Below are positions 30,469 to 42,216 of a DNA stretch of 64,000 nucleotides, one piece after another (position 1 is the stretch's first letter; each line of letters starts with the position of its first letter). The notes under the pieces are model-generated. The model had not been told where the DNA came from. It saw only the letters and a program-made list of their open reading frames with translations, and did not search any database. Made by a program: the position numbers and the translations under genes. This stretch comes from Capsulimonadales bacterium. Lineage in GTDB: Bacteria > Armatimonadota > Armatimonadia > Armatimonadales > Armatimonadaceae. The stretch covers positions 1-64,000 of the forward strand of contig JANRLW010000070.1 in NCBI GenBank assembly GCA_033762295.1, read 5' to 3'.

Positions 30469-30678
30469 TCAGGCGAGACGGCGTTTTTCGACGATATCGA
30501 TCTGGACCACCCGCCCGTCCTGAATAATCAGTTGGACAGAGCCATGGCGGACCTTCTCAATCGCGGCTTTGATTTCCTCAATCGGGATCGGGTGACCGTT
30601 TTTTACCGTATCCGATAGATCCGTCGGAGGAGCGGGGGGGTTGTCACTGACCTGAGCGATCTTTCCGGTTCGGTACAT
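30469..30678 (-). CDS. yezD: YezD/OscA (DUF2292) small protein
   Basis: IKAAIEKVRHGSVQLIIQDGRVVQIDIVEKRRL; last gene of the ssu operon; alternative GTG start at 30699. Confidence 0.85.
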   Translation of the reverse strand: MYRTGKIAQVSDNPPAPPTDLSDTVKNGHPIPIEEIKAAIEKVRHGSVQLIIQDGRVVQIDIVEKRRLA

Positions 30679-30717
30679 GGCATCCAATCCCTTAATCACC
30701 GATTGATAATTAAGACT

Positions 30718-31500
30718 TTATATCACTGATGCTACGTTTATGTCAATCTGACGTGCATCTGTTTCCGGTACAGGCTTTTTTCGTCCAAGCAATTCGTCCA
30801 GGATATGCTCCTCGATCTTGGTGAACTCGATGGCGCTGTGGTTGCGGGGACGTGGAAGATCGACCGTTATCGTATCCACGATCCGCCCCGCATCCAGCAC
30901 GATCACACGGTCTGCAAGCGCAATCGCCTCCTCGACATCGTGTGTCACCAGAATGACGGTGAACCCCTCTTCAAGATAGAGTTCCTCGATCAATTGCTGC
31001 ATCTCACGCCGGGTCAGCGCATCCAGCGCTCCCAGTGGTTCATCAAGCAACAGGAGCCTTGGACCGCTTGCCAGAGCACGGGCAAGCGCCACGCGCTGAC
31101 GCTGTCCGCCCGAAAGAACGCCCGGCCAGTCCCCGGCGCGATCCTCCAGGCCGACATGCGATAATGCCCGCTGTACATGCTCGCCCGGCAACAATCCAAG
31201 CCCGATATTGTCGCGCACCCGTTGCCAGGGCAGGAGACGCGCCTCCTGAAACATCAGGCGTACATCGGGCGGAGTCCCGGCAAAGGTCTGACCATCGCGT
31301 CGAATCTGACCACGGGTCGGTGTATCGAGTCCGGCGGTCAGCCGGAGCAACGTGGATTTACCGCAGCCGCTCTTCCCGACGATGGCGACAAACTCCCCGG
31401 CCTCGACCGTGAGATCGATCCCTTTAAGGACGACCTTTGCTCCAAAAGATTTCTCCACCCCCTCGACGGTCAGGCGGGTGCCGCGCTCTTGCTGTCGCAT
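30718..31500 (-). CDS. ssuB: Aliphatic sulfonate ABC transporter ATPase
   Basis: [29 protein letters not shown] and [15 protein letters not shown]. Confidence 0.9.
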
Positions 31501-32360
31501 GTTGCCCTCTCCTTCCCCTCGGATCCCGGTGGCTGTGTCGCCTTTGCCCTCGTGTTTTGCTGACGTTCTGGCGGCGGTGTGGCCAGGTAATTCGCGTTCC
31601 AGGACAGCAGACGCCGTTCCAGCGCACGCGCAATCACATCGGCCAGTTTCCCCAGTAATGCATAGATCAGGGTTCCGACAACAACGATATCGGTCTGCAT
31701 AAACTCCCGCGCCGTCGTGGTCAGATAACCGATGCCCGCCTCCGCTGCCAGCGCTTCCGCCGCAATCAATGTCAGCCACATCGAGCCAAGCGAGAAACGC
31801 AGACCGACCAGGATAGAGGGCAGAGCGCCGGGAAAGATCACCAGACGGAACAATCGCCATCCGCGCAGACCATAAACCTCTGCCATCTCGCGCAGACCGG
31901 GATCGATCGAACGAATGCCATGGTAGGTGTTGAGATAGAGCGGGAAGAAAACCCCGAGCGCGATCAGAAAGACCTTAGTCTCCTCCCCGATGCCGAACCA
32001 GAGGATGACCAGGGGAATCATCGCCAGGTTGGGGATCGTGCGCAACATCTGCACCGTGCTATCGAGCAACGTGTAGGCGAGCCGTGACAGACCGGTGAGC
32101 AGACCAAGAGCAAAGCCAATGCTTCCTCCGATGAAAAGCCCGGTCAGCGCACGACCGGAGCTAACGGCGAGATGTTTCCAGAGATCCCCCGACTGGATCA
32201 AGGTCGACCCCGCCTTCAGGACAGCCGTTGGCGCGGGCAGGATCTTTGTCGGCAGAATGCCGGTGACGGAGAGAATATGCCAGAGCAGAAACAGCGTCAG
32301 AGGCAAGGCATAGGGCAATATGGCACCAGAAATCGCTCCGATTCGCCTGTTTATCTTCAC
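31470..32360 (-). CDS. ssuC: Aliphatic sulfonate ABC transporter permease
   Basis: [23 protein letters not shown] and [15 protein letters not shown]. Confidence 0.92.
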
Positions 32361-33394
32361 GGTCGAACGTTCTTTCTGTCAGCCGGAGCAAGAAGGGCAT
32401 ACTGCGCCGGGGTCAATGTCGCCTCGCGCACATCGATCTTTCGTGGCAGCAATCCGATCTTATAGAAGTTATCCGCCGAGGTCTGTTGCGCTGCGATTAT
32501 TTTTTCATCAATGGAACGAGCGCCCGTTCGAGAGCGCCGCTGCAAAAGAAACGTCAGCGTTTCCTTATCGACTCCCGTGTTCCGAGCAAGCAGATCGGCG
32601 GTTTCCTGCGGATGCTGGTAGGACCATTCGCTCGCCCGATCCACCTCCTCCAGAACGATCTTGATCAACTCCGGATGCTCCTCGGCGAACTTGCGCGAGG
32701 AGAGATAGAACGCTCCCGGCGTGTTGATTCCCACACGATTGGCGATGATCCGTGCCCCGCTCTGTTTTATCGCGACCGCGAGAAACGGGTCCCAGACGAC
32801 CCAGGCATCGATCTTCCCGGACTCGAATGCAACGCGTGCATCCGGTGGCGCAAGATAGAGCGGTTGTATGTCCGAGTAGGCGATTCCCGCCTTCTGCAGA
32901 TGCTGCAACAGCAGATTATGAGAGCCGGATGCCTTTTGAAAGGCGATCTTCTTCCCCTTCAAGTCCTGAACCGATCGTATCGGTGAGTTTTTGGGGACGA
33001 TGATCGCCTCACCATCCTCGGCATGCTCACCAAGGGGAATATTGGCAATATAGACAAGTGGGGTTCCGGCGGCCTGAGCGAACAGCGCCGGAGAGTCGCC
33101 GGTCGAGCCAATATCGATACTTCCGACTCCAAGCGCTTCAAGCAGAGGCAGTCCGGCAGTGAAATTGAGCCACTCGACGCTCACTCCTGCCGGTGCCAGA
33201 CGCTTCTCCAGGTCGCCACGTAGTTTCAGCAGATTGAGCGGGTCGGCACGCTGATGCCCGATTCGCAGGACGACATGCTTCCGGTTCGTGGCGGCAACAC
33301 CTGTCGCCGCTGTCTCCCCGGCGGGCCGGGAACAGCCGGAAAGACAGACGCAGACCCCTAACAGCACCAGAATAAACCCGCACATCCTGCTCAT
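32357..33394 (-). CDS. ssuA: Aliphatic sulfonate-binding lipoprotein
   Basis: Lipobox LSGC; LEALGVGSID, FAQAAG and DAWVVWDPF. Confidence 0.9.
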   Translation of the reverse strand: MSRMCGFILVLLGVCVCLSGCSRPAGETAATGVAATNRKHVVLRIGHQRADPLNLLKLRGDLEKRLAPAGVSVEWLNFTAGLPLLEALGVGSIDIGSTGDSPALFAQAAGTPLVYIANIPLGEHAEDGEAIIVPKNSPIRSVQDLKGKKIAFQKASGSHNLLLQHLQKAGIAYSDIQPLYLAPPDARVAFESGKIDAWVVWDPFLAVAIKQSGARIIANRVGINTPGAFYLSSRKFAEEHPELIKIVLEEVDRASEWSYQHPQETADLLARNTGVDKETLTFLLQRRSRTGARSIDEKIIAAQQTSADNFYKIGLLPRKIDVREATLTPAQYALLAPADRKNVRP

Positions 33395-33414: not shown

Positions 33415-34293
33415 TTAGTCTTCGATAAACCAGCCAGCGGCGCTCGGATACTTCACCCGGCTGTAGACGACACCGTTGGGATTGGGATTCGGCACCAGAT
33501 TCTGATAGGACGCAAGCGACCCATCGGTGATGGAGGGGTTCGGGTCGCCGGTGTAGGACGGCGTCGAGGATCGGACCCACTTGGCATGTCCATCGCCGAA
33601 CGCGTAGTTGCCGCCGTCACTATGGCGGCTGCGCCCGGTGAAATACTCCGCGCTACAGATCACGGCATCCGGGATCTGGGCCAGAACGACGGGATCATCG
33701 ATGCCATCGGTCCAGACACAGCGGCCACGCGCCTCCGTCAACAGGATTACCTGCGCCGGGTACTGTGGCTTGGCCAGGGTGGCGGAAGGAATCCGTCGTT
33801 CGGCGGCGACATTGAGCGCCATGGTCCCAATCAGGTATCGATTGACCGAATAGGAGAGCGAGGGGCGATAGGGGTTGCCTGCGGTCGAGTTGCCCGCGGT
33901 CCGCCCGGACTTATCGAAGGCGGGGCAGACAAAGATGCTTTTGCCGCCAGCCTGGGCGACGCTCGATGCCATCCCCGCCTTGATATAGGGATCGACGGTA
34001 TAGAGCCAGGTAACGTTGCCGATGCCGGGCGTCGCGCCCTCCGGCGTCGAGTTGGCCAGGGGATAGGTCTCATCGTAATCCTGTGCATACATCAGAAAAC
34101 CGAGACCAAGCTGCTTCAGGTTTGAGAGGCAGGTCGTCTGTCGTGCTTTGTCCCTTGCCTGGGCGAACACTGGGAAAAGAATCGCTGCCAGTATGGCGAT
34201 TATGGCGATAACAACGAGCAGCTCGATCAGCGTAAACCCCGCTCCGGGGTGGAAACCGGATATGATCTTCCGATACGTGGGAGATGGTTTCAT
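33415..34293 (-). CDS. Prepilin-type N-terminal cleavage / DUF1559 / H-X9-DG protein
   Basis: [29 protein letters not shown] and [17 protein letters not shown]. Confidence 0.9.
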
Positions 34294-34347
34294 AAAAACT
34301 CCTTCAACAACCGTTCCAAAAAAAGTAAAAGGGTAGTCTCCGTTTCC

Positions 34348-35424
34348 CTAACGTTCCTGGACAAGGGGCAGAAGTGGGAATACCAGTTCCGCGAACCGGT
34401 ACGCCTCTTCAAGGTGGGGATAGCCTGACAGAATAAAACTGTCGATGCCGAGGTCCGCGTACTCGCGCATCCGTTCGGCGACGGTCGCCGGATCGCCGAC
34501 CAGGGCGGTGCCAACGCCGGGGCGCACCAGACCCAGACCGGCCCACAAGTTGGGACTGACCTCAAGGTGCGGGCCGCGTTTGCCTCCGTGCAGAGCCTGC
34601 ATTCGACGTTGCCCTTCCGAGTTATCCCGTGAAAGCCAGTCCTGTGCGCGGGCGATCGTCTGATCGTCGAGACGCGAGATCAGTCGATCCGCCGCTTCCC
34701 AGGCCTCGTCACAGGTCTCACGCACAATGACATGCAGGCGGATACCAAAACGCACCGTTCGCCCGAACTCCGCCGCCTTCTCACGAACGCGATCTAATTT
34801 CTCTTTGACCTGCGCGGGCGGTTCCCCCCAGGTGAGATAGACATCGCTATGCCTGGCTCCGACCCGGATGCCCTCATCGGAGGAGCCGCCGAACCAGAGC
34901 GGCGGATAGGGCTTTTGTACGGTCGGGAACGGGTTACTCCCCCCCTCGATCCGGAAGAAGTCCCCCGCGAAGTCCGCTTTGCCCTCCTCCAAAAGAGAAC
35001 GCCAGACGGTCAGGAACTCATCGGTCACCTGATAGCGGCGATTGTCCTCGACAAAGATCCCTTCCGCCGCCATCCGGTCCTGCGCTCCGCTCCCCGTCAC
35101 GATATTGATCAGCAGACGTCCTCCGGTCATCCGGTCAAACGTCGCCGCCATACGCGCCGCCAGAGCGGGCTGCATGATCGCCGGGCGGATCGCCACCAAA
35201 AAGCGTAACCGCTGGGTCAATGCCGAGAGCCCGGATGCCAGAACCCACCCCTCCGGGCAGCCGACACCGGTCGGGAGCAATGCGCCATAGTAGCCAAGGG
35301 AATCCAGAGCCGTCGCCAGCGTCTTGAGGTAACCAAAGTCGGTCTGCCGACGCAGGACAGGTGAGCCAAGATAATGCTCATCGCCCGGAGTCGGAAAAAA
35401 CCAGAGAACGCGAATTCCACTCAT
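34348..35424 (-). CDS. ssuD: FMNH2-dependent alkanesulfonate monooxygenase (LLM family)
   Basis: LLPTG, FLVAIRP, YLTWGEPP, PNLWAGLGLVR and SGYPHLEEAYRFAE. Confidence 0.9.
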   Translation of the reverse strand: MSGIRVLWFFPTPGDEHYLGSPVLRRQTDFGYLKTLATALDSLGYYGALLPTGVGCPEGWVLASGLSALTQRLRFLVAIRPAIMQPALAARMAATFDRMTGGRLLINIVTGSGAQDRMAAEGIFVEDNRRYQVTDEFLTVWRSLLEEGKADFAGDFFRIEGGSNPFPTVQKPYPPLWFGGSSDEGIRVGARHSDVYLTWGEPPAQVKEKLDRVREKAAEFGRTVRFGIRLHVIVRETCDEAWEAADRLISRLDDQTIARAQDWLSRDNSEGQRRMQALHGGKRGPHLEVSPNLWAGLGLVRPGVGTALVGDPATVAERMREYADLGIDSFILSGYPHLEEAYRFAELVFPLLPLVQER

Positions 35425-35456
35425 ACTTATATTCTTATACTTCTTACGGCGTCGTC

Positions 35457-35552
35457 CAAAACGACGAAAGGCTGGAAACCCGGCCAGAAACCGCCCGATT
35501 CCTCCGGCAGTCTCCAGCAGAAAGGTTTCCAGCCTCCTGTTGACAGGTCAGC
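35457..35552 (-). promoter_or_regulatory. Leader attenuator copy 1: conserved 21-nt hairpin (35532-35552) overlapping a long terminator
   Basis: Minus strand GCTGACCTGTCAACAGGAGGC; arms GAGGCTGGAAACC / GGTTTCCAGCCTT, followed by a T-rich tail. Confidence 0.75.
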
Positions 35553-35574
35553 TACTTTCTCAAATTTATCGCAT

Positions 35575-35592
35575 ACCGATTAAATCGGTCGA
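35575..35592. promoter_or_regulatory. Palindromic operator-like box (Rrf2/CymR-like)
   Basis: ACCGATT-A-AATCGGT just downstream of the leftward promoter. Confidence 0.55.
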
Positions 35593-35620
35593 ATTTTACA
35601 ACAATATCTCATTCATCCAG

Positions 35621-35649
35621 AGTATAGCCTGGCATTTCAGGTATGTCAA
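35621..35649 (-). promoter_or_regulatory. sigma70 promoter of the leftward ssu operon
   Basis: TTGACA-17-TATACT on the minus strand. Confidence 0.85.
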
Positions 35650-35685
35650 GTTAAAGTAGCTCTTTTCTTGTTTTGCCTTACGCCC

Positions 35686-35714
35686 TTGACAACGGGGTTC
35701 TATCGGGGCATAAT
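35686..35714 (+). promoter_or_regulatory. sigma70 promoter of the rightward ssuD-tauD operon
   Basis: TTGACA-17-CATAAT. Confidence 0.85.
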
Positions 35715-35808
35715 GCCCGAACAAGCAAAGTTGATTTTAGCAATCAACTAACCGGCAATTTAATAGCGTATTCCGTTTTTACGCTATGCCGGCGGTCCGT
35801 TACGACCG

Positions 35809-35880
35809 GCTGACCCGTTAACGGGAGGCCAGAGCTTTATGAACGACATTTCGTTCGTAAAGCTCTGGCCTCGTTTTTTT
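35809..35880 (+). promoter_or_regulatory. Leader attenuator copy 2: 21-nt hairpin (35809-35829) + 22-bp intrinsic terminator
   Basis: GCTGACCCGTTAACGGGAGGC; GAGGCCAGAGCTTTATGAACGA-catt-TCGTTCGTAAAGCTCTGGCCTC-GTTTTTTT. Confidence 0.8.
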
Positions 35881-35908
35881 GGCGTGTCGCTTCGACAGGA
35901 GAAAGACC

Positions 35909-37114
35909 ATGAACGGACTCGATGTTTTCTGGTATTTACCGACACAGGGTGATGAACGATATCTCGGCACCTCACACGGACTGCGAAAGCCGACGCCCGC
36001 CTATCTGCAACAGATCACGCAGGCGGTCGATTCCCTAGGCTACGGGGGCATGTTGCTCGGCACGGGCACCAAACTCGACCCGTTGATCGTGGCCACTTCC
36101 CTGATCCATGTCACAAAACGCCTCAAGTTTCTGGTCGCGGCCCGCCCCTCCATCATGACGCCTGCACTCTGGGCACGTATGGCGGCCAGTTTCGATCAGT
36201 TGTCGCAGGGACGGATTCTGCTCAATATCGTCACCGGCGGCAGCACCGAACAGTTGGAGAGCGATGGGATCTTCGCCGATCATGAGGAGCGCTATGAGAT
36301 CACCGATGAGTTCCTGCATATCTGGCGCTCCCTGATGCTCGGGGAAACGGTGAATTTCGAGGGCAAACATCTCCGCATCAAAAACGGCCAGCAGCAGCTA
36401 CAGCCGATCCAGAAGCCCTATCCTCCGCTCTACTTCGGCGGTTCCTCCCCTGCGGCGCTCGATGTCGCCGCCCGCCATATCGATGTCTACCTCTCCTGGG
36501 GCGAACCGCCGGCGATGGTCCGGGAAAAGATCGAGGAGGTGCGCCGCCGTGCCGCTACCCATGGACGCACTCTTCGCTTTGGTATCCGTCTCCATATCAT
36601 CGCCCGTGAGACCGATGCCGAAGCCTGGGCCGTCGCCGAGAAACTGATCCAGCATGTCAGCGATGAGTCGATCCAGCGAACGCTTAAATCCTATGAGCGT
36701 TCTGAGTCCGAGGGACAGAAACGGATGGCGTCGCTTCACAACGGTCGGCGCGACAGTCTGGAAATCTACCCCAACCTCTGGGCGGGTGTCGGCCTTGCCC
36801 GTGGCGGCGCGGGAACCGCTCTGGTCGGATCGGGCCAATCCATTGCCCGTCTGATGGGCGAGTATCAGGAGCTTGGCATCGACACCTTTGTTCTTTCCGG
36901 CTACCCCTCGCTTGAGGAAGCCTATCACTGCGCCGAGTATGTTTTCCCCCATCTGAAACAGCCCGTTCCCGCGACCTCGCCCTTTAACTCAGGTACGGAA
37001 GGGCCACAGATGGCACGCTGGCGCACCGCCCACGATGTTTCCGAATCGGCAGTCCAGTCTCCGCTAACGAAGGTCGCCGCACGAAATGAACCGGCGCTTT
37101 CAGGAAGGAACTGA
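35909..37114 (+). CDS. ssuD: FMNH2-dependent alkanesulfonate monooxygenase, second copy
   Basis: VFWYLPTQGDERYLG, YLSWGEPP, YPNLWAGVGL and SGYPSLEEAY; RBS AGGAGA. Confidence 0.9.
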   Translation: MNGLDVFWYLPTQGDERYLGTSHGLRKPTPAYLQQITQAVDSLGYGGMLLGTGTKLDPLIVATSLIHVTKRLKFLVAARPSIMTPALWARMAASFDQLSQGRILLNIVTGGSTEQLESDGIFADHEERYEITDEFLHIWRSLMLGETVNFEGKHLRIKNGQQQLQPIQKPYPPLYFGGSSPAALDVAARHIDVYLSWGEPPAMVREKIEEVRRRAATHGRTLRFGIRLHIIARETDAEAWAVAEKLIQHVSDESIQRTLKSYERSESEGQKRMASLHNGRRDSLEIYPNLWAGVGLARGGAGTALVGSGQSIARLMGEYQELGIDTFVLSGYPSLEEAYHCAEYVFPHLKQPVPATSPFNSGTEGPQMARWRTAHDVSESAVQSPLTKVAARNEPALSGRN

Positions 37115-37116
37115 TC

Positions 37117-38184
37117 ATGCGAGGTACACCCCTTCCTCTCCTGTCGCTCACGCTATGGATACTGACCATCACCGGTTGTACGACAACGCCGACCGGGAGC
37201 GGCACAACAACAGCACAGGCTCCAGTGAAGCTACGGATCGGTTATGGCAAAGGCGGCAACTTCAATATCATGCGCCTGCGCGGCACACTGGAGAAGCGGC
37301 TTGCCGGACAGAATGTGAAGGTCGAATGGATCAACTTCCCGATGGGGCCGCAGGCGATGGAGGCGATCGGTACACGTAGCCTGGAGATCGGCAGCACCGC
37401 CGCCACCCCTCCGCTCTTTGCGCAGGCGGCGGGAATCGACTTCGTCTATGCCGCCAACACTCCTCCTGGCAAATCCGGCAGTGGCGGCGCAATCATCGTC
37501 CCGATCGATTCGCCGCTTCGCTCCCTTCGTGATCTCAAAGGGAAACGAGTCGCTTTTCAGCCCGGCGCGGTCTGGCAGTACCTGCTGATCAAGGCGCTGG
37601 AACGTGAGGGAATGCAGTATTCCGATATCATTGCGGTCAAGATGCCGCCCGCCGATGCCACCGCCGCCTTTCATAGCGGTTCCATCGACGCCTGGGTTCA
37701 GGGTGAGCCCTACCTCACGCTGGTGCAGCAGAAGGGTGAGGGGCGCATTCTGGTCAGTACAAAGGACATCCCGACCTCCGGTGGCTTTATTCTCACACCA
37801 CGCACCTTCGCCGCCGAACACCCGGAACTGATCCAGGTGACGCTCGATGAACTGCGAAAGACAGGCGATTGGGCGCGGCAGCACCCGCATGAGGCAGCCA
37901 CCATGACCGCGCAGTCCGGCGGGTTAGACGTGCCCACCCTCGAACAGATGATCCGCCAGCAGGAGAACACCGAACTGCGCCCGGTCGATGCCAGCGTCAT
38001 TGCGCTTCAACAGGAGCAGGCCGACTATCTGACCCGTCTCAAGATCCTACCCCGGAAGATTGCGGTGCAGGATGCCGTGCTCTCCGCAGACCAGTACGCC
38101 CGTATTCTGCCGCCTCCCGCATCCCATCAGGAGGCGCGTGCGATACAGACCACTTCCACGATTCATCAGACCCGCGAAAGGTAG
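37117..38184 (+). CDS. SsuA-type sulfonate/sulfate-ester binding lipoprotein
   Basis: Lipobox ITGC; FAQAAG, DLKGKRVA and IDAW. Confidence 0.85.
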   Translation: MRGTPLPLLSLTLWILTITGCTTTPTGSGTTTAQAPVKLRIGYGKGGNFNIMRLRGTLEKRLAGQNVKVEWINFPMGPQAMEAIGTRSLEIGSTAATPPLFAQAAGIDFVYAANTPPGKSGSGGAIIVPIDSPLRSLRDLKGKRVAFQPGAVWQYLLIKALEREGMQYSDIIAVKMPPADATAAFHSGSIDAWVQGEPYLTLVQQKGEGRILVSTKDIPTSGGFILTPRTFAAEHPELIQVTLDELRKTGDWARQHPHEAATMTAQSGGLDVPTLEQMIRQQENTELRPVDASVIALQQEQADYLTRLKILPRKIAVQDAVLSADQYARILPPPASHQEARAIQTTSTIHQTRER

Positions 38185-38191
38185 ATTTTCC

Positions 38192-39142
38192 ATGTCCACG
38201 CAAACTTTAGACGTGCCCGTCGCTTCACGGAACGCCGCTCATCTGACAATCTCTCCGGTGACGCCGGTCATTGGCGCGGAGGTGTCCGGCATCGACCTGC
38301 GCCAACCGCTCGATGACTTCACCATCGACCAGCTTAAAAATGCCCTGCATCAATGGAAGGTCCTGTTTTTCCGCGATCAGCCGATCAGCGATCAGGACCA
38401 GTTGCGCTTCGGTCGCTACTTCGGCCCGCTGACACCGGCGCACCCGATCGCCGAGGGACTGCCAGAGCATCCGGAGATCTGGGAGCGGTCGGCATCGGAG
38501 TACAAGCGCCATCGCCCTGATGTCTCCGTCGTGACGGCGCGTCCGCCCCGTGACTACAAGGGCTGGCATATCGATATCACCTTTGTCGCAAACCCCAACA
38601 AGTACTCGATTCTACGTGGCGTCGAGATCCCGGCCTATGGCGGCGATACGCTCTGGAGCAATCTGGTTGCCGCCTATGAGGGACTATCCCCGAAGATCAA
38701 GGAATTGATCGACGACCTGCAAGCGGTGCACGGCACAAGCAGTTATGATCGCGGAAGCGGCGACAAACCGCGCAAGGGACCGTTCGTCTCCCTGCACCCA
38801 CTGGTTCGCGTGCATCCGGAGACGCGGGAGAAAGCGCTCTTCTTCAATCCGGGAACGACAACCCATATCATCGGACTGCGCGAGCGTGAGAGCCAGGCGA
38901 TCCTCGACCTGCTTGCGGAGGAGGTGACGCGCCCGGAATATCAGGTTCGGTTCCACTGGTCCCCGAATGCAATCGCCTTCTGGGATAACCAGGTGACCGC
39001 CCATGCCGGTCCGATCGACTATGCCCACTTCACCGCGACGCGCACCGTGCGACGTATCACGGTGGCGGGTGACCTGCCGGAAGGACCGGACGGTTTCCGT
39101 TCCCGGCCGATTGAGGGCGAGCTTTTCGGAATTATCGGGTAA
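38192..39142 (+). CDS. tauD: TauD/TfdA-family dioxygenase (taurine or alkylsulfate)
   Basis: IGAEVSGIDL, WHIDITF, GGDTLW, HPLVRVHPET and WDNQVTAH. Confidence 0.88.
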   Translation: MSTQTLDVPVASRNAAHLTISPVTPVIGAEVSGIDLRQPLDDFTIDQLKNALHQWKVLFFRDQPISDQDQLRFGRYFGPLTPAHPIAEGLPEHPEIWERSASEYKRHRPDVSVVTARPPRDYKGWHIDITFVANPNKYSILRGVEIPAYGGDTLWSNLVAAYEGLSPKIKELIDDLQAVHGTSSYDRGSGDKPRKGPFVSLHPLVRVHPETREKALFFNPGTTTHIIGLRERESQAILDLLAEEVTRPEYQVRFHWSPNAIAFWDNQVTAHAGPIDYAHFTATRTVRRITVAGDLPEGPDGFRSRPIEGELFGIIG

Positions 39143-39200
39143 CACGGAAAGAGCGGTCCTATCGTTTCGGTGGGGCCATCTCGAAAGGAAATTTCACCGC

Positions 39201-40229
39201 ATGGCAGGAATCGTTCCGACTGTTCCACTGGGTAAATCCGGCCTAAAAGTCAGTAACCTTTGCCTTGGCTGTATGAATTTCGGGGAGTCTACGAGTGAGG
39301 AGGACTCGCTGGAAATACTGCGTCAGGCGCATGAAACCGGCGTCACCTTCTGGGATACCGCCAATGTCTACAGCAATGGCGGCAGTGAGGCCATTCTCGG
39401 CAAAGCCTTTGAACAATTCGGCTTTCGGGATGAGATCATTCTTGCTACCAAGGTCAACGGTGCGATGGGTCCCGGTGCCAATGACCGCGGGCTTTCGCGT
39501 CGGCATATCTTAAAAGCCGTCGAGGACAGCCTGCGTCGTCTGAAGACCGACTATATCGACCTCTACCAGATGCATCGCTATGACCCGACTGTGCCTCTGG
39601 ATGAGACCCTGGAAACGCTCCATCTGCTTATCCAGCAGGGCAAGATCCGCTACTATGGCACCAGCACCTTTGCCTCATGGCAGATGGCGGATGCGCTCTG
39701 GCGGGCGCGGCTCAAGGGATGGAACGAGGCAGTGAGCGAGCAGGCCCCGTACAATATCCTCGACCGACGCATCGAAAACGACCGGGCCGGGTTCCTGCGC
39801 CAGTACGGTTGGGGTCTGATTCCCTGGTCACCGCTCGCCGGGGGACAGCTTACCGGCAAGTACGGCCAGATTCGCCCGGATAACCTGCCGGAGGGCTCCC
39901 GTATCCAGCGCAACGACCGCTGGCGCGAACGGACCAACTCCACCGCCGCTGAGGCATCCCTCGCCTTTACCGCGCTCGCACAGGAGCATGGCTACGATCC
40001 CTCTGTCGCCGCCACTGCCTGGGTCCGTCAGCAGGACATCGTCACCGCGCCGATTGTCGGCCCGCGCACGCTGGAGCAGTTTACAGGCCTTCTGCCCGCC
40101 GCGAATCTGGTCCTGCCCGCAACCTTCCTGAGCGCCGTCGATGAGATCGTTCCACCGGGAACTGCCGTCGCCCACTTCCTGAACAACGCCGGATGGCAGA
40201 TCGGTCGCCTCTCCGGCCTGGACAAATAG
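39201..40229 (+). CDS. Aldo/keto reductase
   Basis: LCLGCMNFG, DTANVY, SLRRLKTDYIDLYQMH and WSPLAGG. Confidence 0.92.
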   Translation: MAGIVPTVPLGKSGLKVSNLCLGCMNFGESTSEEDSLEILRQAHETGVTFWDTANVYSNGGSEAILGKAFEQFGFRDEIILATKVNGAMGPGANDRGLSRRHILKAVEDSLRRLKTDYIDLYQMHRYDPTVPLDETLETLHLLIQQGKIRYYGTSTFASWQMADALWRARLKGWNEAVSEQAPYNILDRRIENDRAGFLRQYGWGLIPWSPLAGGQLTGKYGQIRPDNLPEGSRIQRNDRWRERTNSTAAEASLAFTALAQEHGYDPSVAATAWVRQQDIVTAPIVGPRTLEQFTGLLPAANLVLPATFLSAVDEIVPPGTAVAHFLNNAGWQIGRLSGLDK

Positions 40230-40238
40230 CGTTGCGAC

Positions 40239-40267
40239 TTGACAGGGAATCGCTTTCGTGTTATAAC
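40239..40267 (+). promoter_or_regulatory. sigma70 promoter of the second DUF1559 gene
   Basis: TTGACA-17-TATAAC with an extended TG; box TCGATCAATTAAATCAG at 40289-40305. Confidence 0.8.
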
Positions 40268-40322
40268 GAAAACGCAATCACATATTCGTCGATCAATTAA
40301 ATCAGTATTAATCAAAACCAGT

Positions 40323-40385
40323 GCTGACCCGTCATCGGGAGGCCGGTAGAATCGCAAACCGCGATCTACCGGCCTTTGTCTTTTT
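40323..40385 (+). promoter_or_regulatory. Leader attenuator copy 3: 21-nt hairpin (40323-40343) + intrinsic terminator
   Basis: GCTGACCCGTCATCGGGAGGC; AGGCCGGTAGA...TCTACCGGCCT-TTGTCTTTTT, then RBS GGAGG. Confidence 0.8.
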
Positions 40386-40399
40386 GGAGGAAACCAAGT

Positions 40400-41266
40400 A
40401 TGTCTTTACCATCCTCTCGCTCACTGAGAGCGAGCGCCTTCACTCTCATCGAATTACTTGTTGTTATCGCCATAATAGCGATTCTGGCAGCGATTCTTTT
40501 CCCGGTCTTTGCTCAGGCACGGGAGAAAGCCCGACAGACGACCTGCCTTTCTAACGAGAAGCAGCTTGGCCTGGCCATCCTTGGCTATGTTCAGGACTTC
40601 GATGAAACCTACCCGGTGGCGAATTACCCGGCACCTCCGAGTATCGAAGCCGGTCTCGATGCCAATTCGCGGCTACACTGGTATAGCCTGGTCGAGCCCT
40701 ATATCAAAGGTGGCTACACCCGCACTTCCGCAAGCGCCGTCGGCACAACCGCCGGGAAGAAACTCAGCATCTATGTCTGCCCGACCTATGATAAGAAGGC
40801 CCGCGCCTTCAATCTCAATCCCTCATGGAGCTATGTGATCAACTCGAATCTCGCGCCGCCTCGCGCCCAGAACCCGGCCACCCCGGATATCCCCCCGGCC
40901 TGGGCAAACCAGGCTCCGGGCACACTGGCCTCTGTCCAGGCCCCGGCGAACGTTGTTCTGGTTGCAGAAGGCTCTGGAGGACGCGTCTACACCCCCGGCA
41001 ACGACACCGGCAACTATGAGTTTTACCCCGCCTACGGCACCGGGAAAGATACCAGTCTGACCTATATCTATGCACGTACGCGCCATGGCGGCGGATCGAA
41101 TGTCCTGCTGACCGACGGGCACGCCAAATGGTTCCGCTTTCCCGAACCGAGCTTCACCTCACCGGACAGTAACTACCTGAACGATGTGCCGGTGCAGAGC
41201 AATAACACCGTCGCCTATCAGAAGAGCCTCTCGCCCAACGCTCAGGCCTGGTTCCGCGAGGACTGA
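40400..41266 (+). CDS. Prepilin-type N-terminal cleavage / DUF1559 / H-X9-DG protein
   Basis: [33 protein letters not shown] and [17 protein letters not shown]. Confidence 0.9.
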
Positions 41267-41326
41267 TCCGAACCCGCGCTTTCGCAGGGCCCCTCCCTTT
41301 TTCCGTGAGCCCGTTCTCTTTCTCTT

Positions 41327-41656
41327 TCAGACGGGTGCAGACAGGGCAGGGGCCGTTTTCAGTCGACCGAGACATCGACCATTCTCATGCACGATCGGAT
41401 GATCGGGTAAAAGGGGGTAAAAGCGTTCGATAAGTCGAGCGCGACGGTCCGTTTCCTCCGGAGAAAGTCCCAAACCTCCCCGTGCGGAAATCGGTCTTGT
41501 GCTGACGTTCCAAAACTCGACCAGATTTTGGGAGACGTAATACAATTCTTCGCCCTGCTCCCGCAGCGTGCGAAGGGCGGTACGCACCACCATATGAGCC
41601 GGGTCGCCACGATGCGCGATACGGATCAGGATATTACTGTCGAGTAGATACGGCAT
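41327..41656 (-). pseudogene. VapC/PIN toxin, 3'-truncated
   Basis: MPYLLDSNILIR...QNLVEFWNVSTRP...GLGL; the C-terminal HDA/TFN-type PIN motifs are missing. Confidence 0.7.
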
Positions 41657-41898
41657 TAATCGTGATCGGAGTAGATGTCTTCGCGATTGTAGGTGACGGT
41701 GGGGTCGGACGGGATGTCTTCGGTCCCTTCCCCGATGGCGTCCATAGCGGCTTCGAAATCGTCCGGGAAGAAGGAGGCGGTTTCGGGCAGTTCCGGCAGA
41801 ATCATCACCCGGAGACGCTGGGTCCCGATCGCCTTGAAACGATCCGATAGTTCCTGTCCCGTTCCCTCCAGTATTTCGGCGGTCTGCATCCCAGCCAT
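41656..41898 (-). CDS. Putative antitoxin of the PIN toxin
   Basis: Small acidic protein ending REDIYSDHD; TAATG coupling to the PIN ORF; AAGGAG RBS. Confidence 0.7.
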   Translation of the reverse strand: MAGMQTAEILEGTGQELSDRFKAIGTQRLRVMILPELPETASFFPDDFEAAMDAIGEGTEDIPSDPTVTYNREDIYSDHD

Positions 41899-41930
41899 TG
41901 CTCCTGCTCCTTGTCATCTCTCGCTTACGA

Positions 41931-41960
41931 TCGTTTCCAGTCGTTTCCAGTCGTTTCCAG
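41931..41960. repeat. 10-bp tandem repeat TCGTTTCCAG x3
   Basis: Three perfect copies. Confidence 0.9.
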
Positions 41961-41995
41961 TATAGCGCAGAACGCAAAGGCAGGCGAAAAACGAA

Positions 41996-42216
41996 GCAGC
42001 CTGATGGAAAAATCATCCATCAGGCTGCCTGTTTTGGGTGCGGGTGATGGAGTTATCGCAAAGAATAGGCCCGCCACCCCTTCTCTGTACGCCCCGATCA
42101 TCGTGGAGACGGACAAATTGAAGCCGTCCCGCGAGCAACGCCGCGCCCTGTATACGACGTGGCCCCGCGAGGGAACGGCAGGACAAAGACCGCGCACGGT
42201 GGCCGCTGACAGGTGA
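41996..42216 (+). repeat. att-like copy B: hairpin + tRNA-fMet 3' fragment + conserved coding tail
   Basis: GCAGCCTGATGGA...TCCATCAGGCTGC; TGGGTGCGGG (42035-42044) is identical to tRNA 49746-49755. Confidence 0.85.

Follow-up and report, generated by a model that had tools for sequence, protein, structure and literature searches.

A 21-nucleotide hairpin that shares bases with intrinsic terminators in sulfur-gene leaders, and its co-occurrence with DUF2292 (YezD/OscA) genes

RESULTS

Three leaders in the window carry one hairpin overlapping a terminator

The window analyzed here is a stretch of 64,000 nucleotides (nt) from a Capsulimonadales bacterium of the phylum Armatimonadota (positions 1 to 64,000 of contig JANRLW010000070.1, assembly GCA_033762295.1), and the subject of this study is a 21-nt element found in three of its 5' leaders, with the RNA consensus GCUGACC-N8-GGAGGC. 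Three copies of this element had been placed in a first-pass annotation of the window, and their coordinates and strands are confirmed by a pattern scan of the 64 kb, in which GCTGACCYGTYAWCRGGAGGC matches exactly three times even with up to three mismatches tolerated. The level expected by chance from shuffles is 0.01 matches, and none of 100 shuffles reaches three. When a covariance model of the element is run over the entire 5.16-Mb genome, the same three copies are the only ones recovered, at 37.9 to 38.6 bits, and the next match scores 18.9 bits. The elements of the leaders are as follows.

35532..35552, minus strand: motif copy 1, hairpin P1, GCUGACCUG-UCAA-CAGGAGGC (37.9 bits; -7.3 kcal/mol)
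35809..35829, plus strand: motif copy 2, hairpin P1, GCUGACCCG-UUAA-CGGGAGGC (37.9 bits; -8.8 kcal/mol)
40323..40343, plus strand: motif copy 3, hairpin P1, GCUGACCCG-UCAU-CGGGAGGC (38.6 bits; -9.3 kcal/mol)
35621..35649, minus strand: sigma-70-type promoter of leader 1, TTGACA-17-TATACT (11/12 consensus positions, promoter scan)
35686..35714, plus strand: sigma-70-type promoter of leader 2, TTGACA-17-CATAAT (11/12 consensus positions, promoter scan)
40239..40267, plus strand: promoter-like TTGACA-17-TATAAC of leader 3 (read from the sequence)
35458..35536, minus strand: intrinsic terminator 1, 5' arm from the AGGC of the motif, T-rich tail (from folds; coordinates read from the sequence)
35825..35882, plus strand: intrinsic terminator 2, 20-bp stem from the GAGGC of the motif, then GTTTTTTT (terminator scan and fold)
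40340..40386, plus strand: intrinsic terminator 3, stem from motif position A18, tail TTTGTCTTTTTG (from folds)

The near-consensus promoters annotated before each copy were recovered by scanning for copies 1 and 2, where they are divergent, and by reading the sequence for copy 3, whose promoter is missing from the scan output because the scan rule demands a final T. Directly 3' of each copy lies a long hairpin followed by a T-run. The 5' arm of this terminator begins within the 3' half of the motif, and the last 4 to 6 motif bases form the terminator base in every case. The G+C-rich hairpin and subsequent U-run expected of an intrinsic terminator are present at all three copies, as the first-pass annotation had described; the terminator scan lists that of copy 2 only, and those of copies 1 and 3 come from folds. 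Beyond the motif and the T-run, alignment of the leaders to one another is poor, in keeping with the view that the small motif and its overlap with the terminator are what is conserved.

Folded alone, each of the 21-mers forms the hairpin P1, with the energies listed above. Its lower stem consists of G1-C21, C2-G20, and the wobble U3•G19; an internal loop opposes G4 and A5 to A18, and an upper stem of four pairs carries an apical loop, which is a tetraloop in the three window copies. The fold of the full leader with an intact terminator is 5.6 to 6.8 kcal/mol better than the fold in which P1 is forced, and forcing P1 costs the terminator the 4 to 5 basal pairs adjoining the U-tract. The mutual exclusion of hairpin and terminator proposed earlier is therefore borne out by their shared 3' bases and by this loss of basal pairs. 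In copy 3 the upper stem is compatible with the terminator, the conflict being confined to the lower stem and internal loop; these are also the most conserved nucleotides of the element. Of the sequencing runs listed for this DNA, none is of RNA, and four DNA-type runs contain small shares of it.

Some further features of the leaders were noted. A 15-nt A/T-rich box, TCGAYCRATTWAATC, is common to leaders 1 (35578-35592, minus strand) and 3 (40289-40303, plus strand), lies 19 to 25 nt 5' of the hairpin, and resembles a stretch in locus L013. As a second conserved box it was rejected: its two exact matches arise by construction, and at three mismatches it has 8 matches where 7.8 are expected. 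Read by eye, leader 1 contains a short open reading frame (ORF) at about 35580-35612 (minus strand) of 10 residues with two adjacent Cys codons, and leader 2 contains one of 11 codons at 35787-35822 (plus strand) that reads across the first half of hairpin 2, with its stop codon in the loop. No short ORF, and no ATG 5' of the motif, is present in leader 3.

The element recurs within Armatimonadota

The first-pass annotation had proposed a covariance model and a genome search as the way to check the element, and both find it well beyond the three window copies. Among 61 relatives, the exact pattern matched 13 genomes, and a reversed control pattern gave no matches. Across 401 genomes of the phylum it occurs at 56 places in 47 genomes, compared with 8 control matches. 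More than half of these places (29) fall between genes; their loops are A-rich, a terminator follows most of them, and the genes behind them are sulfur-related. By eye, the ORFs 3' of them encode DUF1559/N-methyl proteins, SsuD-like and O-acetylhomoserine-sulfhydrylase-like proteins, and a binding protein. The other 27 have G+C-rich loops inside long open frames and are taken as chance matches.

The covariance model was built from the 29 intergenic copies. It recovers compensatory variants at positions that the pattern holds fixed (pair 7-16 as U-A; pair 1-21 as A-U or G•U), and pentaloop copies as well. In what follows, G numbers label genomes and L numbers label loci, with G000 being the genome of the window. 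Tandem or closely spaced hairpins are seen in single loci (L088, L121, L221 in G190, contig C22 of G428, and L019/L022 in G042). In G190 one hairpin lies 5' and one 3' of yezD, a gene of the DUF2292 family described below, and a Methylomirabilis record has three hairpin copies within 4 kb.

Many phyla carry the element upstream of sulfur genes

The motif is not particular to this genome, and many phyla carry it. A cross-phylum scan, with one genome per species and the pattern limited to the commonest loops GCTGACCNGWCAACNGGAGGC, matched at least 121 stretches, where about 9 chance matches are expected from uniform-composition arithmetic. Among the matches listed are Bacillota (Rummeliibacillus, Paenibacillus, Siminovitchia, Kurthia, Metabacillus, Alkalibaculum, and clostridial metagenome-assembled genomes), Geobacter and relatives, Actinomycetota, Chloroflexota, Nitrospirota, Methylomirabilota, Acidobacteriota, Planctomycetota (including Brocadia and Kuenenia), Armatimonadota, and a few Proteobacteria. 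Counts of genomic context rest on 80 of these stretches (79 distinct loci). About 10 of the cross-phylum loci are chance matches inside genes, such as histidine kinases and an immunoglobulin-like protein.

At 47 of the 79 distinct loci, a script found a terminator with its 5' arm beginning at motif positions 14 to 21, a count from which several further hairpins are missing through the T-run rule of the script. A Pfam family could be assigned to 49 of the 79 downstream ORFs, and 28 of these 49 belong to families of sulfur, cysteine, or methionine metabolism. The families are PAPS_reduct (3 ORFs), ATP-sulfurylase/PUA_2 (2), NIR_SIR (2), PALP (5), NMT1-type binding proteins (7), SBP_bac_11 (2), BPD_transp_1 (2), TauE (1), PMSR (2), S-AdoMet synthetase or MetK (1), and NlpA (1). 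The remaining ones include LysR (2), NifB-like Radical_SAM (3), a nitrogenase-component-like family (1), DUF1559 (2), and Porin_O_P (2). In terms of genes, those mainly found behind the motif are ssuD, cysH, sat, sulfite reductase, cysK, sulfonate and sulfate binding proteins, metK, and msrA.

Several loci differ in arrangement from those of the window. Four of the 20 loci searched for known RNAs (L092, L112, L133, and L140) have an S-adenosylmethionine (SAM)-I riboswitch 220 to 580 nt upstream, on the same strand. The order at L133 is SAM riboswitch, yezD, hairpin with terminator, and cysH, which amounts to two serial terminators flanking a small gene; a Metabacillus locus has a SAM riboswitch, a 47-amino-acid ORF, 9 nt, the hairpin, a terminator, and cysH, and the 47-amino-acid ORF is itself a DUF2292 protein (66.2 bits). 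In loci of Planctomycetaceae, Brocadia, and Kuenenia (L102, L118, L125, L127, L131, L137, L142, L158, and L166), no terminator follows the hairpin; another conserved structure is present instead, ending near the ribosome-binding site, and may be a translational expression platform. The downstream gene at two of these loci has a weak Porin_O_P match. In relatives of Geobacter (L100, L117, L155, L151, and L099) the motif is found 5' of NifB-like radical SAM, nitrogenase-component-like, and DUF1847 genes, genes that may belong to a nitrogenase-like sulfur-salvage system. Contig C31 of G425 carries six motif copies within about 56 kb (219-276 kb).

The hairpin covaries and matches no catalogued RNA family

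The small covarying hairpin first described from three copies holds up in an alignment of 101 copies (95 distinct). Over these, 99.2% of cells are paired, and changes on both sides occur in 5 of the 7 stem pairs. The cells with double changes number 65, compared with 13.9 ± 5.0 in shuffles, and none of 500 shuffles reaches 65, figures to be read in the knowledge that the alignment is model-fitted, that most rows were found by a pattern fixing 15 positions, and that rows up to E 0.5 are included. Slid controls fall to 23 to 56% paired. The wobble U3•G19 is present in 92 of the 95 distinct rows, a conservation that is understandable only for RNA. The unpaired G4, A5, and A18 and the pairs flanking them hardly vary among Bacillota, Armatimonadota, and Actinomycetota, whereas the apical loop is variable, A-rich, and 4 to 5 nt long across copies.

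The first-pass annotation had recognized no named RNA family in the element, and Rfam 15 agrees. In window positions 34000-42000 at E ≤ 10, it returned only microRNA and snoRNA models at 18.7 to 25.1 bits, far under their gathering scores, and at the motif in 20 cross-phylum loci it returned no family at E ≤ 1. A literature search, with most subscription journals outside its coverage, found no account of the motif or of RNA binding by DUF2292, a family rarely mentioned in what was searched, and no riboswitch for cysteine, sulfide, sulfur, sulfate, O-acetylserine, or thiosulfate. Taken together, the literature search and Rfam 15 yielded no record of an RNA element devoted specifically to the cysteine, sulfate, and sulfonate branch. 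Three other identities were considered and set aside: a guanidine-II-like element (a few loops are ACGA, and most do not fit ACGR), a T-box (no UGGN bulge by eye), and sequestration of a Shine-Dalgarno sequence (no conserved start codon after GGAGG by eye).

The genes behind the three leaders include a yezD-like gene

The first genes behind the leaders had been named as two ssuD genes and a DUF1559 gene. Both SsuD assignments exceed the cut-off of the SsuD equivalog TIGR03565 (518.2 bits), and the third gene is indeed of the DUF1559/N-methyl type. The operon behind copy 1 and the gene or genes behind copies 2 and 3 are listed below; for the ATP-binding cassette (ABC) transporter genes at 30718..33394 on the minus strand, ORF limits are given, and the true starts may lie later.

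34348..35424, minus strand: ssuD-1, FMNH2-dependent alkanesulfonate monooxygenase, first gene of the operon (Bac_luciferase; TIGR03565, 537.5 bits)
33415..34293, minus strand: DUF1559/prepilin-type N-methyl protein, inside the copy 1 operon (profile matches)
32357-33394, minus strand: NMT1-type binding protein of the ABC transporter, copy 1 operon (profile match)
31470-32360, minus strand: ABC permease, copy 1 operon (profile match)
30718-31860, minus strand: ABC ATPase, copy 1 operon (profile match)
30469..30699, minus strand: yezD-like gene (DUF2292), last gene of the copy 1 operon (PF10055, 54.2 bits; cut-off 22)
35909-37114, plus strand: ssuD-2, first gene of the plus-strand operon at 35909..40229 (TIGR03565, 535.3 bits)
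37117-38184, plus strand: NMT1-type binding protein, plus-strand operon (profile match)
38060-39142, plus strand: TauD-family dioxygenase, plus-strand operon (ORF limits; profile match)
39003-40229, plus strand: aldo/keto reductase, plus-strand operon (ORF limits; profile match)
40400..41266, plus strand: DUF1559/prepilin-type N-methyl gene behind copy 3 (profile matches)

The DUF2292 gene, which starts 18 nt after the ATPase stop, is the single PF10055 match in the 5.16-Mb genome. In Armatimonadota the hairpin repeatedly precedes DUF1559/prepilin-type N-methyl (H-X9-DG) genes, one of them within an ssu operon; such targets are the window genes at 33415-34293 (minus strand) and 40400-41266 (plus strand) and those of loci L007-L009, L015-L020, L078, L079, L089, L110, and L154. 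This suggests that abundant pseudopilin-like DUF1559 proteins join scavenging under sulfur limitation.

DUF2292 genes accompany the motif and often directly precede it

The co-occurrence of the motif with DUF2292, the YezD/OscA family, is new. In a sample of 151 Armatimonadota genomes, the motif reaches 27 bits or more in 11, and every one of these has DUF2292 (G000, G005, G006, G032, G033, G035, G080, G093, G119, G140, and G190). Conversely, all 12 genomes of the sample with a strong DUF2292 match have the motif, the twelfth (G039) being found only on inspection, which showed a diverged hairpin and terminator 30 nt after yezD; two weak DUF2292 matches (29 bits) in the phylum come with no convincing motif. 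From other phyla, 10 motif genomes with no yezD within 700 nt of the sampled copy were searched, and DUF2292 is present in 10 of 10. By comparison, it is present in 1 of 5 genomes whose pattern matches fall only inside genes and in 1 of 14 control genomes.

Gene order adds to this picture. A yezD ORF on the same strand lies 5' of the motif in 24 of the 80 cross-phylum loci, and none does so on the opposite strand. The distance from the yezD stop to the motif is 2 to 119 nt in 22 of these loci, with an overlap of 24 nt in one and a gap of 492 nt in another. When loci were picked by the protein alone, the hairpin was found just downstream of the DUF2292 gene in 13 to 14 of 24. In three genomes of another Armatimonadota family, yezD is instead located 2.7 to 4 kb 3' of the motif on the same strand. 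Within Bacillaceae, 76 of 90 genomes have DUF2292, and a covariance search with a strict filter finds the motif in 9 of the 90, all DUF2292-positive, a count that is a lower bound because the model misses a common pentaloop variant. Of 20 Bacillaceae yezD loci, 11 have a pentaloop hairpin 0 to 17 nt after the stop, then a terminator, and then a gene whose product starts with MLTYE or MLTFE, which resembles the cross-phylum PAPS_reduct ORFs and was read by eye as cysH.

YezD is predicted to be a small dimeric protein

The ORF at 30469-30699 (minus strand) belongs to DUF2292 by its PF10055 score of 54.2 bits against a cut-off of 22, and it matches the OscA equivalog NF033785 only weakly (26.7 bits against a cut-off of 85). 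A subgroup of DUF2292 bears the NCBIfam label 'sulfur starvation response protein OscA'. In Bacillus subtilis, yezD encodes a small uncharacterized protein and is repressed by CymR and Spx, according to one report (PMC3479203). The literature consulted records no molecular function for the family.

An AlphaFold2 model based on a 56-row alignment has a disordered N terminus followed by a helix (residues 33-42) and a beta-hairpin (46-53 and 56-64), with a predicted local distance difference test (pLDDT) score of about 90 in the domain. The near-invariant residues are G46, D54, Q59, E64, K65, and R67. In the homodimer model the strands 46-53 of two copies pair, with a score of 0.77 compared with 0.00 for the best of three controls; contacts agree 100% between runs, and the pLDDT of the partner is at least 89. 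This mark is reached by 20 of 30 proteins solved as one-chain pairs and by 1 of 23 solved as single chains, counts that calibrate the present case only roughly, as it used its own alignment. A small beta-rich dimer of this kind would be compatible with nucleic acid binding and proves nothing about it. A protein atlas searched with the YezD sequence returned DUF2292 clusters only; with 30472-30678 (minus strand) as the query, one DUF2292-like cluster is annotated as half viral (Uroviricota; score 0.76), which is no more than a lead.

DISCUSSION

A probable termination switch for sulfur limitation, with YezD as its possible factor

Placing the hairpin, its overlap with terminators, and its downstream genes side by side, we are highly confident that the element is a real and widespread cis-regulatory RNA, not yet catalogued, through which sulfur-acquisition genes are gated at the level of termination. 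We further propose, at a little below even confidence, that it is the antiterminator hairpin of an attenuation switch serving a sulfur-limitation regulon, with a putative YezD dimer as the factor. The architecture of the switch and its regulon are well supported, and binding of YezD to the hairpin is suggested by co-occurrence and gene order.

The switch could operate as follows. The element would fold into P1 as the nascent RNA emerges, and the terminator would require motif nucleotides 16/18 to 21 for the basal pairs adjoining its U-tract. With no factor present, the far more stable terminator would form, and transcription would end before the ssuD or DUF1559 gene. A factor that keeps the lower stem and internal loop of P1 closed would deprive the terminator of its base, and RNA polymerase would read through. 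Because only the lower stem and the GA/A loop exclude the terminator and are also the most conserved nucleotides, it is these that an operator of the switch would have to hold closed, a step to which the folding energies point. The proposed factor is a dimer of the DUF2292 (YezD/OscA) family, and the single yezD at the end of the copy 1 operon would then provide positive feedback. The first-pass annotation had guessed that the motif is bound by a protein, and DUF2292/YezD is a concrete candidate for that protein. As the effector, YezD remains a tentative choice, held at somewhat less than even weight. The general form of the proposal, that DUF2292 is an unrecognized family of small dimeric RNA-binding antiterminators with the 21-nt hairpin as its cognate site, forming a sulfur-starvation switch of many phyla, is more tentative again.

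A number of observations weigh against a role for YezD. Among the 20 Bacillaceae yezD loci, yezD adjoins the next gene without a hairpin in 3, and 6 encode a subtype with a C-terminal tail and the conserved strand TVHDSQVTQIEK, again without a hairpin. G330, a single contig of 8.2 Mb that is 97% complete, carries a single good motif with its terminator upstream of a Pst-like ABC operon and no DUF2292 at E ≤ 0.1, and G139 has motif and terminator before a cysteine-synthase-like ORF (by eye) and no detectable DUF2292. In the reverse situation, Pseudomonas G420 has a DUF2292 gene before a sulfate-binding-protein ORF (by eye) and no recognizable motif. Because genomes with only one of the two exist, YezD can act without the motif and the motif can persist without YezD. 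The co-occurrence counts draw on related genomes, which are not independent samples, and could simply reflect membership of motif and yezD in a shared sulfur-starvation regulon; such coregulation could yield much of the co-occurrence but leaves the gene order unexplained. Lastly, structural and sequence neighbors of YezD are uninformative: a sequence search of the PDB reached E 0.15 at best, Foldseek had no match at E ≤ 0.001 and only weak rows that include MazE and AbrB, and the highest Z from VIA-align was 2.3.

The Pseudomonas genome also contains, at L243 between the oscA-like gene and the next ORF, the stretch CCCGACCACGGG, which agrees letter for letter with the upper stem and loop found in one Armatimonadota copy. 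It has neither the conserved flanks nor a terminator and could be a remnant or a chance occurrence.

Other ways to read the hairpin

The main rival to YezD is a very small metabolite riboswitch, in which a ligand reporting sulfur status would be bound at the GA/A loop and lower stem, perhaps together with the terminator base. O-acetylserine or N-acetylserine, acting through an ON switch, would be candidate ligands, as would a signal of sulfur sufficiency acting oppositely, and yezD would be only the most faithful member of the regulon. The near invariance of G4, A5, A18, and their flanking pairs across phyla is typical of RNAs with a universal ligand, and the occurrence of the motif without DUF2292 in G330 and G139 would follow naturally. 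The SAM-I riboswitches that precede the motif in 4 of 20 loci would likewise fit a two-input control. However, just three unpaired nucleotides are conserved and the loop is variable, and we know of no riboswitch aptamer this small. Nor does a riboswitch account for the presence of DUF2292 in 21 of 21 motif genomes of the two main samples, or for the hairpin sitting so frequently right after the yezD stop and not before yezD. A compact ON switch overlapping its own terminator does have a precedent in the hydroxymethylpyrimidine pyrophosphate (HMP-PP, or thiS) riboswitch (PMC6478431). On balance, we regard a metabolite riboswitch as unlikely, though not negligible.

It is improbable that a different protein, of the ANTAR type or with an unrecognized RNA-binding domain, binds the hairpin. 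A protein-bound hairpin overlapping a terminator is a familiar design, and the genome encodes three ANTAR-domain proteins, but these are encoded on other contigs, ANTAR sites are unlike a lone hairpin whose loop varies and measures 4 to 5 nt, and no CAT_RBD protein is encoded in the genome. A hairpin conserved across phyla would moreover need an equally widespread partner, and the data point to DUF2292 alone.

More improbable still is a coupling to translation, in which the choice of fold would fall to a ribosome that, on completing yezD or a short leader ORF, occludes the first half of the hairpin, with the YezD protein uninvolved. The start of the Bacillaceae hairpin 0 to 17 nt after the yezD stop would suit such a mechanism, as would the short ORFs read by eye in the window, one running into copy 2 and one with adjacent Cys codons in leader 1; the gap between yezD stop and hairpin nevertheless spans -24 to 492 nt, many copies have no upstream ORF, and leader 3 has no ATG before the motif. 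A DNA operator for a dimeric transcription factor is very improbable. In its favor, CCNG-N4-CNGG at the core reads as an inverted repeat, and the element sits behind promoters; against it, the flanks are asymmetric, the orientation relative to the downstream gene is constant, the stem shows covariation in place of conservation, a U•G wobble is among the conserved pairs, and the element adjoins a terminator.

Implications of a proposed antiterminator hairpin in sulfur regulons

Sulfur assimilation is known to be controlled by the DNA-binding regulators CysB, Cbl, and CymR and by SAM riboswitches. The motif described here would be a new and easily searchable marker for sulfur-limitation regulons in uncultured bacteria, and it indicates unexpected members of such regulons, namely DUF1559 pseudopilin-like, NifB-like, nitrogenase-like, and porin-like genes. 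For DUF2292, a small and widespread orphan protein, it also provides a function that can be tested directly. If DUF2292 is the antiterminator, OscA/YezD would at last have a molecular function; if instead a metabolite is bound by the RNA alone, the element would rank with the smallest riboswitches found in nature.

Comparison with known systems

The first-pass annotation likened the element to BglG/RAT-type antitermination. The logic of a shared terminator base stands: as with BglG, SacY, or LicT and their ribonucleic antiterminator (RAT) sites, a few bases of the 5' terminator arm also belong to a small, internally looped hairpin, and the two folds are exclusive. The system itself does not, because a search of the genome (94.5% complete) for CAT_RBD (PF03123) gave no matches, where the control search was positive in 4 of 14 genomes, and identity with BglG/RAT is ruled out on this ground. 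The hairpin also differs in length, at 21 nt compared with about 29 nt for a RAT, and the regulon concerns sulfur acquisition and not sugar uptake.

ANTAR targets consist of two tandem hairpins with hexanucleotide loops, whereas the present element is a single hairpin with a loop of 4 to 5 nt that is found in tandem in a few loci only; the three ANTAR-domain matches in the genome are those mentioned above. With the SAM-I riboswitch (S-box) the element shares overlapping gene sets (cysH, metK, metQ, and msrA) controlled by termination. SAM-I is, however, a different and much larger RNA, and at the 4 of 20 loci where both occur it is a separate element upstream of yezD or the hairpin. The HMP-PP (thiS) riboswitch is described as a compact ON switch whose active fold disrupts a terminator by the U-run (PMC6478431), and the likeness lies in a compact element embedded at a terminator and easily mistaken for a plain one. 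It differs in that the loop of the thiS terminator is conserved (PMC6478431), whereas here the terminators are unrelated and only the hairpin preceding them is conserved. As for the known OscA/YezD proteins, the window ORF is PF10055-positive but remains under the cut-off of the OscA equivalog.

In the hut operon of B. subtilis, the regulator gene hutP comes first, and its RNA site overlaps a terminator located before the structural genes, so that binding of HutP blocks the terminator. The present hairpin differs from that site in being one structured hairpin, where HutP recognizes repeats of NAG triplets; DUF2292 is an unrelated family with a domain of about 40 residues and only a putative RNA binder, and in the window yezD is the last gene of its operon and not the first. 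The likeness is one of gene order, which in many genomes reads yezD, hairpin, terminator, and sulfur genes, with yezD directly 5' of the terminator-linked hairpin in 24 of 80 cross-phylum loci, 13 to 14 of 24 loci picked by the protein, and 11 of 20 Bacillaceae loci.

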